Counted from the first letter of the stretch, positions 19,982-26,964 are shown. The stretch is DNA of 64,000 bases from Candidatus Poribacteria bacterium (GCA_965222225.1 CBDCTK010000002.1:4000001-4064000); one strand, 5' to 3'. The notes: generated from the sequence alone by a model not told the origin. Made by a program: numbers and translations.

Positions 19982-22689
19982 ATGCACAAAATGATTAGAT
20001 TCACACGTTTCCACGCATTATGCGTCGCCTTAACATTGCTCGTCAACGCCGCCGCCGCACAGGTTGTTACTATTCCCGACCCTAACTTAGAACAGCTTGT
20101 CAGAGAAACACTTCGACTTCCGAACAACGTTCAAATTGAGCGTGGGCACATGCTCCAGCTACGCGACCTTGATGCTGGAGGTAACCGAGAAATTCTAAAT
20201 ATCACGGGACTAGAATACGCCACCAACATCGTAAGTCTGAACCTCTATGACAACCCTATCGAAGATATTAGCCCTTTGGCTAATATGACCAAGATGACAG
20301 GTTTCAACTTGTGGGGGTGTCGCATTGTTGATTTGAGTCCACTCCGTAACTTGATGAATCTGAGTTGGATTGTATTAGGGAGTAACCAAATCTCCAACCT
20401 CAGTCCGCTGTCTGAACTAACGAATCTCACTTATCTGAATCTCTCATTGAACCAAATTTCTGACATCAGCCCCCTTGCAAACCTTGTTAACCTTCAGGAA
20501 CTCTTGATAGACCAAAATTCGGTTGAAGATATTACAATACTCGCAAATTTGACACAACTTACTCGCTTGCGCTCGGACACAAATCAGATTCACGACATCA
20601 GTCCCCTTGCCAATCTCACCCGGTTAGAAGAATTGTGGCTCAATAGAAATGCGATTACAAATCTCGCCCCACTGACTGGATTGAACAACTTACAGAAACT
20701 TTACATTGCTGACAACCCCTTCCACGACTTTAGTCCCCTTTTTGAACTTGAAGGGGTAGAACTGGACATTGAAATAGATGAGGGATTCAACCTCGTCGTC
20801 GAAATGCCCGAACCGAACTTAAGACTGTTGATGCGAGAAACGCTGTCTCTCCCTGAAGTGGTGCCTCTTACACAAGGACAGATGCTACGATTGACAGGAC
20901 TGGACGCCGGTGGGGACCGTGGAATCACCGACCTAACGGGACTGGAATACGCAACCAACCTCCAATCTCTCGCGCTTTACCACAATCCAATCGTAGATAT
21001 TAGTCCTTTAGCCCATCTTGCAAAATTGGAAGGATTACATCTCTGGGGGTGCCGCATTGTTGATTTGAGTCCACTCCGTAACTTGAAGAATCTGAGATGG
21101 ATTGTCTTAGGGAATAACCAAATCTTGGACATCAGTCCATTGGCTGAATTAATCAATCTTACCGATTTGCGCCTAGATAGCAACCAAATTGTCGACTTCA
21201 GTCCCCTTGCCAATCTCGTTAACCTTGAGACGCTATGGATACAGGCAAACCCGGACGATGACTTTTCAGCATTGGATAGGTTGAGTCTAACCGATTTCCG
21301 ATACGACCAAGTATGCGATATTCCACCTCTATTTCCGCTGGAGGAGCGTCTGAACAATCGCAGCTATCCCTCTATCGTTCGCGCCTGGGATGATGTTGTC
21401 GGACAGGATCGCCTCTCTCCCATAGAAAGGGGCATGTTGCACGATCTCTGGTTCAATCCGGCCCCTCACTTTGAGATACAATGGGATATAACCCCGACTG
21501 CGCTAACGCCAGGACTGTCTACTCAACTGGCAGGAGTGCCGGGCGTGTCTTATGACCTAAGGCGAAGCGCCCAGCAGTTGAATCCGGACACCATAGTTCT
21601 CGCCGATATTCACATTCTTAGCCTATTACCGGAAGAAGAGTTCCCTCCTGATTCGCGCTTCTGGCTTAGAGACAGCAATGGAGAGATTGCAAAGAGGCTA
21701 GACTCTGACGGTAACCTTTATCCCATGGTCGATATTTTCGAACCCGAAGTCCAGAATCTCTTCGTAAACCGGATTCTTGCCATTGAACGCTGTGGGGTGT
21801 TTGATGGTGTGTTTCTAGATGAATTTTTCCACCATGGGACAGCCTTTGCGGGAAGACACTTATACGACGCGAGTGACGAGGAACTTATCCAAGTATGGAT
21901 GAATATACTTAAAGCTGTTCGGGCCCAAGCTCGTGATGATTTTCTCATACTGATGAATGTTAACGAGACTAAACCGACGCGGGTCGCCGAATACGTTAAT
22001 GGCGTGCTCACGGAATCCTTCAGAGACCATCCGGGCGGGTACAGCCGCGAATGGATTATGACACATGAAGATACGCTCTCGTGGGCTGAGAATAATCTCA
22101 GAGAACCTCACATAAACTGTCTATACGGCGCGGGAATGAGCATAGAGCCACCCGATGGCCCGAACAACCTACGCTGGATGCGGATGTTCACAACCTTGAG
22201 CCTAACTCATTCCAATGGCTACGTAATATACACCGATGGTCAAAGAGGCGATCCCTCTGCAGACGCTCCATTTGGTACTCACCACGCACACCTATGGTAT
22301 GACTTCTGGAACGCCGACATTGGTCAGCCAGTAGGTCCGAAAGCCCAGCTCCATGAGAATACGGAAGGTCTATTCATTCGTGAGTTCACAACGGGCTGGA
22401 CAGTGTATAATCGGAGCGGTAAGTCTCACGTTGTCACATTACCTGAGCGCGTGCAATCTGTACGAAGTGGTGTCCAAAACACCCAGCACGCTGTTCCCGC
22501 CTTGACGGCGACATCTACCTCCGCGTAGCGCCGGTTAACCCTGCAGATATAAACGGTGACGGTGTTATGAACATCCTAGACTTAGTTCTCGTGGCAAATG
22601 CGTTTGGCACCGACGCGCACGATGTCAACGGTGACGGCGTTACTAATATCCTAGACTTGGTCATAGTAGCACAAGCCATTAACCAGTAA
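19982..22689 (+). CDS. Internalin-like LRR protein with glycoside-hydrolase-like domain and dockerin; 1-bp frameshift near 22500
   Basis: Signal peptide, two LRR blocks (ISDISPLANLVNL) with IPDPNL/MPEPNL caps, and FDGVFLD. The ORF stops at 22528, but the frame starting at 22501 encodes LDGDIYL..PADINGDGVMNILDLVLVANAFG..DVNGDGVTNILDLV to TAA at 22689. Confidence 0.85.
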
Positions 22690-22788: not shown

Positions 22789-23538
22789 ATGTTAACGCCG
22801 CAGCAACTAACACATTACCATGAACAGGGCTTCGTGATTCCGGATTTTCGCTTGCCCGCCTCAACCATACAGTCAATCAAGGACGACTTTGAGCGGTTGC
22901 TGATGCGGTACCCCGAGTTCCGGCAAAATTGCCCGTCTCTGCTCACCTACGACACGACCTTCCTGAATTACGCGAGGAACCCGGACATCCTTGACATGGT
23001 GACCCAAATTCTCGGAGAAGATATAGCCGTTTGGAATTCCAGCTATTTTGGCAAACCTGCACATGATGGGAAAAGGGTGCCTTGGCATCAAGATGGACGC
23101 TACTGGCCCATTAGCCCTCTCGCAAGTTGCTCCGTATGGATTGCGATTGACGATTCCAACACCGAGAACGGTTGCCTGCGGATTATCCCCGGTTCGCACA
23201 AATCGCGGAAATTATTCAGGCACGAAAGCAACCCCAGCGACGACCTCGTTCTTTCGCTTGAACTCCTGCGATCCGAATTTGACGAAAGCACCGCTGTGGA
23301 CATTGCCTTGGAATCGGGACAGGTTTCGCTCCACGATGTCTATTTGGTGCACGGTTCGGAACCCAACACCTCCGGTAAATCCCGCCGCGGCATGACGCTG
23401 CGCTTTTTTCCCACCACCTCCGTTTACGAGCGCGACATTGAGGGAGGAGTGCAGCCGCGATCGCTGTTCCTAATGCGGGGCACGGATCGGTCAAAACGAA
23501 ATGACTTCGTGGTGAAACCGTTGCCCGCACCCCAGTAA
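22789..23538 (+). CDS. Phytanoyl-CoA dioxygenase (PhyH) family Fe(II)/2OG oxygenase
   Basis: WHQD, ENGCLRIIPGSH and LVHGS.PN.S...RR. Confidence 0.92.
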   Translation: MLTPQQLTHYHEQGFVIPDFRLPASTIQSIKDDFERLLMRYPEFRQNCPSLLTYDTTFLNYARNPDILDMVTQILGEDIAVWNSSYFGKPAHDGKRVPWHQDGRYWPISPLASCSVWIAIDDSNTENGCLRIIPGSHKSRKLFRHESNPSDDLVLSLELLRSEFDESTAVDIALESGQVSLHDVYLVHGSEPNTSGKSRRGMTLRFFPTTSVYERDIEGGVQPRSLFLMRGTDRSKRNDFVVKPLPAPQ

Positions 23539-23748
23539 ACCGCCAAACCAGAAGATAAGTGCATTTGTAGGGTGGGATCGAAAGAGCGAATAGCGATAAG
23601 GATTTTCTATCGCCCTCCCTATTTGGTCGGTTGATCGATTGAGATCTTCAGGTGTATTGCACCAGCGAGTTACCAATATCAGAAACCGCCGCCAAGGTCG
23701 TAGGCATACTCCGTATGCCGTAACCCTAGTGTGGATTGGGAAGGTGGG

Positions 23749-24447
23749 TCAAAACGCCGTGGACATCGCGATTCCGAACCGCTCAAGCCAGATGTACATG
23801 AGACTAACGCCGTGCTGTCTACGAAAATAGTTGAACATCAGGTGCGACCGATCTCCGTCATACATCCCGCGAGCGGAGAACCCTCTGCCAAAATCAACCG
23901 TGGCGCCGAAAGGATAATTGAATCCGTCATCCCATTCGGAATAGTTCACGGTCGCATATAACGACAGCGGAAGGCGCGGCAAGCGCTTGGCAAGCGTGAA
24001 AAAGTAGGCTTGAGTCCCAGCGGGTGAGCCGATGCGGTCCGAGCTTGTTCCGATGAAGAGGGCAGGTCGGGTATCCGTTTCCGTAAGGAGGAATGCGTTG
24101 AAGAGCGGAGAGATTTCCGATGCCGCGGGGTTATATTCAAGACCAAGTTGACCCCTGCTTAGGAACTGATAATTCAACGTCATCCGCCAGCGCGGACGAT
24201 CTTTCTCCGTGTCGACATAACGCCAAGAAATCGCCCATGTGGTCTGAATACCGCTTCCCCGAAGCGGTGCGCCTTCGCCAGGTCAGGCGCTTCAGGTAGG
24301 AGTCATGGAAGTCTGGGGGGCGGTCTTTAGCGGCTTGAGTTGGAGATTCGCTTCGTTTGACCAGCTATCAGCCGCCGCGGTCAAGAACAAATATAATACT
24401 AGACTCCCAATAAGCGTATGTGTCAGTGTTGCTCCAAAACGTGTCAT
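23749..24447 (-). CDS. Candidate selenoprotein (U52-S-A-U55), exported beta-barrel-like protein, 232 aa
   Basis: ATG at 24447 is in frame with the 144-aa ORF. Hydrophobic signal peptide (LIGSLVLYLFLTAAA). The only interruptions are TGA at 24294-24292 and 24285-24283. A SECIS-like hairpin follows. Amphipathic strands and a C-terminal Phe. Confidence 0.72.
24250..24268 (-). promoter_or_regulatory. Putative bacterial SECIS element
   Basis: Minus strand reads ACCGCTTC-GGG-GAAGCGGT, a perfect 8-bp stem with a G loop. The loop lies 22 nt after the second UGA and 31 nt after the first. Confidence 0.65.
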
Positions 24448-25103
24448 GGTTGATGAATGGGGAAATGATGGACAGGAGGCAGGTCATCCTGTTTTAATTG
24501 GTTGATGGGATAAGTAGCAGTCAGTGGGTTGCTATCGGATTCCGTTTCCATGTGAATTATAGTTAGAGCCTAATAGAATAACAGTGACTAAGCCAAATTT
24601 GTCATCAGAGTTGCTGCATACCGTACAAGCGAAGAGCAACACCGTATCACCCGTGTCAAGCTCACTCGTGCCTACAAGTCGTATATATTCTAATGCTACT
24701 GCGCCTGGTTACTTTCTTATTTGGCGTTTAAAGAATCGCTGTACCCGCGACAACCTGAAATGTCGCTCCGCTGGAGCGAAACATCTTTAGGTATGTTATA
24801 CTTCTGTAGTTAAGTGTTGGTCTGTCTTGTACTGCAGCGAAGTGGTATGTTAGGCTGCCGTAGCCATGTGAGGATTTGACTAACCACTTCTTCCTACCAC
24901 CAAACAGTTGCGTAGAATGTCTATATCGTTTTTAGTTGGTCAATCCCTGCGTCTGTGTACATCGTAATATTCTTTTATGGGTAGATGGTTAATTAGGTAT
25001 GGGGCTAGCGGATGTGTTTGATTTTGAGGAAATAGAGGATAATGTCCCAAGTGCAAAGAAACTACAAATCGCCGTATGCCGGTATTGGCTTAGTGGGCTA
25101 TGG

Positions 25104-25724
25104 TTAAAAAGGAATATCATCATGTGTTTCTTTCGTGTATGATAATTCCAAAAGCGCCCCTTTAAGTCGCTGTAAAGTATTCAATACGTCACTGGCGCTT
25201 TCAATTACAGTGTAGGTATTTTGGATATCGACGCGTTGCCGTCTAACTTCATTCATAATCAATGCGACGGAATCACCAAACCGGTCTAATTGATTTAAGT
25301 GTTCTTCGGATTGTCTCTTGGTGAACATAAATCTCCTTGTATCTATACTATCCGTACCGGGGTAATTTGGAAGATACGTCAATTGCTCAATGTAATCCTT
25401 GTCTTGCTGCCACAGACGCTGCTCCCACTCGTCGTCCCAATACTGCTCGGAATAGTCCTGATAATAGTCCTCTATGATAGAATAGGTAATATCGTCATCA
25501 AAATACTGCTCCCAGTGGTCGTCATACTCGCCAAGAAGTTCTTGTGTATGTTGGTGCAAAAAGTCTTCATAATCCTCGTCGTCCGGATTCGAAATTTCGT
25601 CAATGTAGTTCATCAGGAGGACTTTCGTGGAGTGATCACTAGCGATACCGTATAATGAATCGTCTCCGTTCGCATTTAATGCCATCTTAATTGGCGGTGC
25701 AACCATGCGAGAAATAGATTTCAA
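25104..25724 (-). CDS. Hypothetical acidic protein ending in DDIPF
   Basis: 206 aa with a D/E/Y/Q-rich core. TTG start preceded by GAGGG, 7 nt after the phyH stop. Confidence 0.7.
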   Translation of the reverse strand: MKSISRMVAPPIKMALNANGDDSLYGIASDHSTKVLLMNYIDEISNPDDEDYEDFLHQHTQELLGEYDDHWEQYFDDDITYSIIEDYYQDYSEQYWDDEWEQRLWQQDKDYIEQLTYLPNYPGTDSIDTRRFMFTKRQSEEHLNQLDRFGDSVALIMNEVRRQRVDIQNTYTVIESASDVLNTLQRLKGALLELSYTKETHDDIPF

Positions 25725-25731
25725 TCTTCCC

Positions 25732-26721
25732 TCAGGCGCAGGCGGGACTGTCTACCGTCCATCGGTTGAAAGTCGGATTTTCACTCACGGCGAGTTTGCT
25801 GCGGGCGTCATACCACATATTCGCCCACTCAATCGGATCGTGTAATTCGCTCCCCGGGTTGGATCTGCTGCGAGCGACGAAGCCCGGAAATGCGCCGCGC
25901 CCCGTTGGTTGACCTATTGGATTATAACGAAGGTCAAAACTCCAACGAATATTGTCGCTCTTGTTTGGCAGCGAAGAGTGGCAGTTCAGGCGATTGAAAA
26001 GCAGCACCGATCCGCGCTTCATGGGAAGCGGAACGCTATCCGCCGATCGTAGGTATTTGTCCGGAATGTGGAGACCGAATCCTCTCGAAATTTCCTTGTG
26101 CGCGTGACAGTGTTGGAGCAATCCCTCGCGATGGCTCCTCGGAATAACCTCTAAACAGCCGTTCTCAATCGTAGCCTCCCACAGACAGAACCACACCGTC
26201 AACATATTGGTCTCATCGGCTTCGGGCGTGACAACGCCGGTGTCTTGATGCCACGGGGTCGCACCTAGCTGAACGTTCCCGGTCTCCTCGTTAATGGGGC
26301 ATAAATGCTCCGGCGGTTTGAGCCGCACATGCTGCACCGGATTGGAGTAGATTTCCGGTCCAATCAACGACTCGACGGCATCGAGGAGTTTCTCGTTTCG
26401 CAGCATCCTGAAAACCGCGGGACCCACCCACATCGGCGTATCCGTCTGCACGTTCCGCTGCGGCAGCGAAAAGTCGAAATATTGTGCGTGCACCTTGCCG
26501 GATTCGGCGTAAATCTTGGTCAGTCGATCGCCAAACGGCAGGTCGTCATAGGTGGAGGAGACTTCACCCTTTTCCTCTAATTCGAGGGCGAGTCGATCCA
26601 ATACGGTCGCGTATTCCTCAATGACCGGATCAATATCTTGCTCGGGGTCAAACAAATCTTCCACGACCAAGTACCCCTGTTCCTCAAAGTGCGCCACTTG
26701 GGATGCGGTAAGATGTGCCAT
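25732..26721 (-). CDS. Phytanoyl-CoA dioxygenase (PhyH) family protein
   Basis: TPWHQDTG, ENGCLEVIPRSH and HSSLPN.S..IRWSFDLRY. Confidence 0.92.
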   Translation of the reverse strand: MAHLTASQVAHFEEQGYLVVEDLFDPEQDIDPVIEEYATVLDRLALELEEKGEVSSTYDDLPFGDRLTKIYAESGKVHAQYFDFSLPQRNVQTDTPMWVGPAVFRMLRNEKLLDAVESLIGPEIYSNPVQHVRLKPPEHLCPINEETGNVQLGATPWHQDTGVVTPEADETNMLTVWFCLWEATIENGCLEVIPRSHREGLLQHCHAHKEISRGFGLHIPDKYLRSADSVPLPMKRGSVLLFNRLNCHSSLPNKSDNIRWSFDLRYNPIGQPTGRGAFPGFVARSRSNPGSELHDPIEWANMWYDARSKLAVSENPTFNRWTVDSPACA

Positions 26722-26964
26722 TTTTCCTTCTTCCTTTGCGTGAATCGCGTGCAATGGTTCCGAATAACGCGAGTTTGAATTCGCCTACACAACAGATGAA
26801 CACGGGGAGGCATGACTTTCACATCTGTCGAATATAAACGTAATGAGCGGTTTCTTGTTACGCTGTACTATCACGCCCCGATCTCCACCTGTGTCCCGTT
26901 CTAGCCCACTGAAAAATTCTTACCTAGAAATCACATTATCCTCTGTCCTTCTAACTCCATATTA

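Follow-up and report, generated by a model that had tools for sequence, protein, structure and literature searches.

Positions 23749-24447 on the minus strand of a 64,000-nt stretch of DNA from a Candidatus Poribacteria bacterium (GCA_965222225.1, CBDCTK010000002.1:4000001-4064000; the whole stretch is called the window below) were analysed as a putative selenoprotein gene. The reading frame is interrupted by two TGA codons which, judged from sequence comparison, are very probably both selenocysteine (Sec, U) codons and would form a UxxU motif. A hidden double-Sec protein had been proposed by the original prediction, and this proposal was strongly supported by the conservation of both TGA codons in relatives, by a covarying hairpin that follows them, by the Sec machinery of the genome and by homologues displaying CxxC in place of UxxU. 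Taken as a whole, the evidence is best explained, with good confidence, by a secreted double-Sec beta-barrel carrying a metal or redox site. The gene appears to represent a real and widespread selenoprotein family with two Sec residues, which is apparently uncatalogued.

The reading frame and the conservation of its two UGA codons

Translation of the minus strand from the ATG at 24447 to the TGA at 23749, with TGA read as U, gave 232 codons interrupted by two TGA codons only. The product of the full coding sequence (23749..24447, 232 residues followed by the TGA stop, both internal UGA codons being read through) begins with MTRFGATLTHTLIGSLVLYLFLTAAA and ends in Phe. The first TGA (24292..24294) would encode Sec52 and the second one (24283..24285) Sec55, while the terminal stop (23751-23749) is also a TGA. 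Under translation table 11 the same region is divided into a 51-aa open reading frame (ORF) ending at the first TGA (24292..24447), as found in the ORF listing, and a 144-aa ORF starting with the ATG at 24183 (23749..24183), which is the shortened gene-caller product. The extension of this 144-aa ORF in frame to the upstream ATG had been described in the original prediction and agrees with the translation. The start codon is followed by a predicted signal peptide (residues 1-26, 24370..24447), recognised by eye from a basic n-region, a hydrophobic core and Ala at positions -3 and -1, with cleavage after TAAA; the N-termini of homologues are comparable. Neither the readthrough product nor the 144-aa ORF was assigned to any family in Pfam (scanned to E<=1) and NCBIfam.

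Both codons were also followed in contigs of four other public runs, consisting of RNA libraries of three studies and one further run, and no difference was detected at either TGA. The gene is covered by contigs X12 and X16 (both spanning 23700-24477), X19 (23990-24477) and X3 (24256-24420). The variants near the TGA codons, at 24280 and 24298, are synonymous third-position changes. Two of the runs lack RNA-library cover at 24484-24700, to which no weight is given. An assembly error is ruled out by these contigs.

A protein search returned 252 relatives, 120 of which were listed. Among the listed ones, 116 were called at 130-173 aa with starts lying after the TGA positions, in line with the expectation that standard gene callers shorten the protein. 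Genomic DNA was then searched in two ways. When 176 genomes of the phylum were searched in six frames, matches were obtained in 39 of them; all 35 matches spanning the motif contain exactly two internal TGA codons, and the other seven are short fragments that stop short of it. A scan of 185,579 genomes, one per species, delivered 183 relatives, and in the best 80 of these 183 the pattern P-[T/S/A/I]-TGA-x-[G/A]-TGA-P-G-E-G was present without exception (80/80). Combining a set of 30 loci with the 80 loci of the species scan (the two sets share some genomes), both TGA codons were kept in 110 of 110 loci, corresponding to 83 distinct sequences with TGA at each position in 83/83, and the motif reads P-T-U-x-G/A-U-P-G-E-G. 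According to genome titles, the carriers include Poribacteria, Latescibacterota, Gemmatimonadota, Acidobacteriota/Thermoanaerobaculia, Eisenbacteria, Krumholzibacteriia, Calditrichia, Planctomycetota and others. The true stop codon differs among relatives (TGA 34, TAA 34, TAG 16; n=84). The conservation of the two internal TGA codons is far beyond chance. Since the invariant Pro, Thr and Gly codons that flank and separate them have third positions free to vary (offsets -4, -1, 14, 17 and 23), one frame is coding across both UGA codons.

Cys-containing forms of the protein were obtained from an exhaustive profile search, which gave 234 cluster representatives at E<=0.001, twelve of them being retrieved. 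The sequence TCAGC, i.e. CxxC, was found in seven of the twelve (P0146, P0151, P0161, P0157, P0147, P0145 and P0215). In the six Cys forms that were placed in the alignment both Cys residues fall exactly at the two Sec columns, equivalent to positions 52 and 55, the motif PTCAGCAGEA being aligned with PTUxGUPGEG. The pair is missing in three other retrieved relatives (P0165, P0250 and P0144), and P0213 is a Sec form coded with W. In all six metagenome loci where the Cys motif was found, the Cys codons are TGC or TGT, and no hairpin occurs at the homologous place in these six loci. In a tree of 58 rows, the 48 Sec forms all fall to one side of a branch that has a support of 92/66 and occurs in 94% of bootstrap trees, and the six Cys forms build a separate long-branched clade (support 100/99). 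The last of the twelve, the divergent relative P0129, reads P-A-C-V-G-W-P-G-E-G with Cys first and W second; it may be a CxxU intermediate, in which W perhaps stands for a TGA translated under another code.

The hairpin and the selenium machinery

A hairpin resembling a selenocysteine insertion sequence (SECIS) is located on the minus strand at 24250..24268. Its 7-bp stem (24267-24261 paired with 24257-24251) encloses a GGG loop (24260-24258), the arms within 24268-24250 being ACCGCTTC and GAAGCGGT; one extra A-U pair is specific to the window. The first G of the loop lies 31 nt from the first UGA and 22 nt from the second, and the stem starts 24 and 15 nt past them, respectively. The perfect stem, its loop and both distances had been counted correctly in the original prediction.

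The conservation of this structure was analysed in 82 distinct 90-nt sequences, one of the 83 being dropped as it contained N. The 7-bp stem was paired in 99.1% of the cells of the alignment, whereas slid controls were paired in 30-69%, and the observed covariation score was reached by 0 of 500 shuffles. Pair 48-54 is represented by CG (43), UA (35) and UG (2), and pair 45-57 by GC (55), GU (13) and AU (10). The same stem was recovered by RNAalifold. Covariation affects third positions of codons for Leu/Gly and Pro/Ser, where changes are synonymous, and constraint on the protein is therefore no explanation for it.

As given in the sections of PMC13188914 covered here, the bacterial SECIS model comprises a loop of 3-9 nt with a G within its first two nucleotides, a stem of 4-16 bp, a distance of 16-37 nt from the UGA and an energy of <= -7.5 kcal/mol. 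With its 7-bp stem and a loop of the type C-G[G/U]G-G, the hairpin of the window lies within all four constraints for both UGA codons. Its energy is -10.8 kcal/mol, and 80 of the 82 sequences reach <= -7.5 kcal/mol. Being GC-rich throughout, Sec and Cys forms cannot be told apart by the folding energy of the 66 nt past the motif; only the hairpin at its fixed position distinguishes them.

The genome contains the complete set of genes that were looked for. The tRNA-Sec, selA and selB genes lie side by side on contig 2. With a score of 76.1 bits, the tRNA-Sec exceeds its cut-off of 47, and ARAGORN calls it SeC with anticodon tca; scores of 523.9, 343.1 and 363.9 bits were obtained for SelA, selB and selD, respectively, the latter with one in-frame TGA. 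Outside Poribacteria, SelA was found in all ten carrier genomes sampled. Two further genes of the same genome deserve mention. The selD gene (G000:C2:2933348-2934274, L018) is itself a selenoprotein gene, its single in-frame TGA being followed by an 8-bp stem with a GGG loop 20 nt on. A second candidate selenoprotein, located on the same contig at about 5528875 (L131:159-1280, minus strand), is a Prx/ResA-like protein with an F-U-P-F-C motif (UxxC) and a signal-peptide-like N-terminus, and displays a 6-bp stem with a GUG loop 24 nt from its UGA. The same type of hairpin is thus common to selD, the Prx-like gene and the barrel gene in one genome.

Predicted fold, gene neighbourhood and possible function

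The mature protein was modelled with AlphaFold2 using a 48-sequence alignment. The model (mean predicted local distance difference test score, pLDDT, 83.4; predicted TM-score, pTM, 0.78) contains 12 strands between mature residues 45 and 205 (23755..24237). A Foldseek search against PDB gave 17 matches at E<=0.001, all of the listed ones being transmembrane beta-barrels, either natural outer-membrane proteins or, in one case, a designed protein. The best E-value was obtained with FapF (1.4e-5) and the best superposition with KdgM (TM-score 0.51-0.52 by query and 0.59-0.61 by target, root-mean-square deviation 4.3-5.0); matches to NanC, OmpG and FadL were just above E 0.001. The family profile found no PDB sequence at E<=10. 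Conserved residues of the protein include E78, D111, R112, D171 and H176. Phe, the usual last residue of outer-membrane barrels, is encoded at 23752..23754 and ends 46 of the 48 aligned members. Four Omp85 matches above the cut-off, covering the Omp85/BamA type, were identified in the genome. According to the model, the mature product is thus predicted to be a 12-stranded barrel of the outer membrane whose flexible N-terminal arm carries UxxU, consistent with the signal-bearing beta-barrel with a terminal Phe that had been anticipated.

For the surface location of redox activity or metal capture suggested by the original prediction, a correction is proposed. Since the arm precedes strand 1 of an even-stranded barrel, the UxxU motif would most probably be exposed to the periplasm and not to the outside of the cell. 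The signal-peptide-like N-terminus of the TlpA-like partner protein described below was counted as support for the periplasmic side.

Outside Poribacteria, 45 of 49 loci (47 of the 49 having at least 700 nt of downstream sequence) possess a gene for a protein with YHS and TlpA-like domains, which starts on the same strand about 13 nt downstream. In the encoded partner, a Cys-rich domain of YHS/TRASH type is combined with a TlpA/ResA-like thioredoxin domain containing WCxPC, and the N-terminus resembles a signal peptide. Both domains were matched in all five partner proteins scanned, and in three of the five the YHS match exceeded the Pfam cut-off. Among the Cys forms, YHS is either fused to the barrel or encoded beside it. 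In proteins of 413-494 aa (L134, L136, L137 and L138), the YHS part lies ahead of the CxxC barrel, and the three that were scanned (L134, L136 and L138) match one or two YHS domains; a TlpA-like gene directly follows the barrel in L136, L137 and L138. L133 and L135 encode YHS as a separate protein, which lies after the barrel in the former locus and before it in the latter, and one Cys form carries the source name 'YHS domain-containing protein [Armatimonadota]'. The occurrence of the same three parts in three arrangements suggests that barrel, YHS and TlpA parts work together.

The following mechanism is proposed. SelB and Sec-tRNA would bind the hairpin and both internal UGA codons would be read as Sec, the single hairpin staying folded while the ribosome decodes the first UGA and then the second. 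After removal of the signal peptide, the exported protein would be inserted by the beta-barrel assembly machinery (BAM) as a 12-stranded barrel. Its flexible N-terminal arm of about 40 residues, which carries P-T-U-x-G/A-U-P-G-E-G, would place two selenols at the periplasmic mouth of the small barrel. There, the paired selenols would most likely bind a soft metal, copper being the leading guess, or cycle between diselenide and diselenol. In most lineages the downstream YHS and TlpA-like protein would keep this site reduced and exchange metal with it. As this partner is absent from the Poribacteria lineage of the window, the protein would act there alone or with unlinked thioredoxin-like paralogues, such as those whose genes occur elsewhere in the genome, unlinked to the selenoprotein gene.

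Weighing of the proposal and of other explanations

Several points count against the proposal as a whole or parts of it. The use of one hairpin for two UGA codons 9 nt apart is itself a proposal, and the 31 nt between the first UGA and the loop come close to the upper limit of the model (16-37 nt). Deviations were seen in three of the 82 hairpins, L094 with -5.0 kcal/mol, L108 with -7.1 kcal/mol and L124 with a differently built stem, and a permissive Rfam scan of 24150-24400 gave matches at chance level only and no SECIS family. SelA is present in 171 of 176 Poribacteria genomes, and co-occurrence inside the phylum cannot separate carriers from non-carriers. The presence of RNA-library contigs over the gene is not proof of transcription. 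In the model, the N-terminal arm (40 residues, including U26 and U29 of the mature protein) has a pLDDT of only 50-67, its placement relative to the barrel being unfixed. Finally, the YHS/TlpA neighbour was found in 0 of 31 Poribacteria loci, and the genome of the window, at 94.9% completeness, gave no Pfam YHS match. The metal or redox reading is transferred from relatives in other phyla, because the lineage of the window lacks the partner.

With regard to function, a metal-handling role of the UxxU site is about as likely as not. A more far-reaching proposal can only be put forward tentatively: the family could be the outer-membrane part of an undescribed three-part envelope system that occurs in many uncultured phyla. 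Besides the 12-stranded barrel, whose arm bears a diselenol or dithiol, this system would comprise YHS/TRASH domains and a reductase of TlpA type. The paired selenols would capture or gate copper, or a different soft metal, in a channel through the outer membrane, and Sec would be effectively obligatory in one whole, slowly evolving clade. The strongest competitor accepts the selenoprotein and considers UxxU as a pure redox centre, whose diselenide/diselenol couple is recharged by a TlpA-like thioredoxin and which passes electrons at the outer membrane or detoxifies oxidants. The partner is indeed of the ResA/TlpA thiol-disulfide oxidoreductase type with WCxPC, a redox function is assumed for most catalogued selenoproteins in the parts of the reviews covered (PMC9312934, PMC13188914), and a comparable envelope module with DUF3570, DsbD, a thioredoxin-like protein and a small CXC protein appears in the part of PMC8238504 covered. 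In addition, the genome of the window keeps the gene without any YHS. A pure relay would however leave unexplained why YHS/TRASH is linked to the family in three independent ways, as a TlpA fusion, as a fusion with the barrel and as a separate neighbour, and the [S/T]GA[S/T] flavinylation motif was found in 0 of 48 members. A purely redox-active site is considered rather less likely.

The remaining explanations dispute the Sec codons themselves, and fare much worse than their decoding as Sec by means of the hairpin. It is very unlikely that the UGA codons are read as another residue such as Trp. Four longer database homologues (P0008, P0015, P0016 and P0066) do possess a signal peptide and W at both Sec positions. 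However, loci L108 and L114 encode proteins nearly identical to P0015 and P0066, yet their DNA has TGA. The W residues in these public proteins are an artefact of gene callers that switched the genetic code on short contigs. Moreover, TGA serves as an ordinary stop in the window, where it ends 4 of 20 ORFs of >=300 aa as well as the gene itself, and both selA and selB can be read without interruption using table 11. Sec, in contrast to Trp, accords with the CxxC homologues and with a covarying hairpin located at SECIS distance.

Equally improbable is the production of two polypeptides, i.e. a short secreted leader ending at the first UGA and a barrel started downstream, with the hairpin acting as a regulatory element or attenuator, although this is exactly the split that gene callers predict. 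The first possible start after the second UGA occurs in 20 different combinations of position and codon and lies 7-88 codons downstream; in 13 of 84 sequences this start is an ATG. Being scattered in this way, these starts do not define any conserved downstream initiation site. The x-G/A and PGEG residues around the UGA codons are conserved in coding style in the same frame, the Cys homologues run through as single proteins, a signal peptide would be missing from a barrel started downstream, and no U tract is present 3' of the hairpin.

A pseudogene or sequencing error, in favour of which nothing can be cited beyond the two stops themselves, is effectively refuted by the recurrence of the same two TGA codons in all 110 loci, which come from several phyla and have frames intact apart from these codons, and by the agreement of the contigs from four other runs at both codons.

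Relation to known systems and genomic surroundings

In the parts of PMC9312934 and PMC13188914 covered here, UxxU is listed only for the Prx-like family, the metal-binding protein NF041115 and FmdB, and two outer-membrane selenoproteins are listed, NF041027 and NF049945. The double-Sec barrel family is not among the catalogue-table entries in those parts of the two reviews, and no description of it was found in a literature search. The view of an unusual exported UxxU selenoprotein expressed in the original prediction holds for the family as such, which has no Pfam or NCBIfam model, and has to be tempered in that exported barrels (NF041027 and NF049945) and UxxU (three families) have precedent in the parts of the reviews covered.

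As far as described in those parts, the catalogued UxxU and double-Sec families share with the barrel family a close Sec pair replacing a Cys pair, a nearby SECIS that is presumed, and a metal-binding or redox role. They are Prx-like, metal-binding or regulatory proteins, whereas the barrel family is predicted in the outer membrane with the motif on an N-terminal arm. In agreement with the lack of any Pfam or NCBIfam family for the window protein, no match was obtained to PF00578 (Prx-like), NF041115, TIGR02605 or NF045648, and two further Sec forms and one Cys form also gave no NCBIfam family. The GSU2204 or MtrB/PioB-like barrel (NF041027) and the TonB-dependent receptor of FCYXU type (NF049945) are, as far as the reviews were covered, Sec-bearing outer-membrane barrels too. 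They contain one Sec each in contrast to the two in the family described here, and neither model matched the window protein. MtrB/PioB-like barrels and TonB receptors belong to much larger barrel families.

KdgM, NanC and FapF are similar to the window barrel in predicted fold and size. This likeness is structural only, as the sequence identity amounts to 8-13% and no Pfam match was found. These three proteins are not known to carry a Cys or Sec pair on an N-terminal arm. A functional parallel may be seen in ScoI and CoxB, whose copper-binding Cys pairs are reportedly reduced in a TlpA-dependent manner. In that system a periplasmic reductase of TlpA type keeps a metal-binding dithiol reduced for copper uptake, and the neighbour of the selenoprotein gene outside Poribacteria scores as ResA/TlpA-like. 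By analogy, the substrate here would be a diselenol on an outer-membrane barrel, unlike in ScoI and CoxB, and the reductase has its own YHS domain.

In the part of PMC8238504 covered, DUF3570 is described as an envelope protein that is flavinylated and whose gene is linked to those of DsbD and thioredoxin-like proteins, with DUF4266 as a small partner with a Cys motif. Both modules, to the extent that this source was covered, combine an envelope protein of unassigned function with a secreted thioredoxin-like protein and a small partner with a Cys motif. The window protein is about half the size of DUF3570, the flavinylation motif is missing from all 48 members, and no linkage to ApbE was found among the neighbours scanned. 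Some relatives are labelled 'putative DUF3570' in the database and the Atlas. Neither the window protein nor a DUF3570-named relative gave a Pfam match to DUF3570 (PF12094), and this label as well as that of YjbH was rejected as family membership, serving as a lead to a barrel only.

The discovery of selenoproteins usually starts from annotated proteins, and a family that is shortened or mistranslated with Trp by gene callers is invisible in annotation. The conserved motif offers a simple signature by which annotators could recognise the gene. If confirmed, the family would add a strictly double-Sec member to the bacterial selenoproteome, offer a natural system for testing whether a single SECIS can decode two UGA codons close to each other, and point to an unrecognised outer-membrane partner of YHS/TlpA-type proteins in the handling of metals or redox equivalents in the envelope, including that of sponge symbionts.

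In the window, the gene sits between two genes for PhyH dioxygenases and an ORF without assigned family. The PhyH (phytanoyl-CoA dioxygenase) genes are located at 22789-23538 on the plus strand and at 25732-26754 on the minus strand, and a PhyH gene is also found two genes downstream in the Latescibacterota locus L084. A scan of 23400-25200 revealed no promoter-like site and two terminator-like sites on the opposite strand, which were not above shuffles. A gene for a TonB-dependent receptor adjoins the selenoprotein gene in 9 of 80 loci, which is a weak hint: it lies just upstream on the same strand in five Latescibacteria-like loci (L098:517-2967, L081, L092, L112 and L125) and about 1.3 kb downstream in four Poribacteria loci (L072, L073, L075 and L076). 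Hydantoinase B genes near nine loci were considered as well and look unrelated. Just past the stop of the gene, the intergenic DNA contains, at 23600-23645 and 23700-23730, short repeats with about 100 and about 16 genome copies, which look like a dispersed element similar to the repetitive extragenic palindromic (REP) type; metagenome contigs at these two places show a very high summed depth and many loose ends. An 848-aa ORF on the plus strand (19982-22528) has a signal-peptide-like start and, by eye, many leucine-rich repeats.

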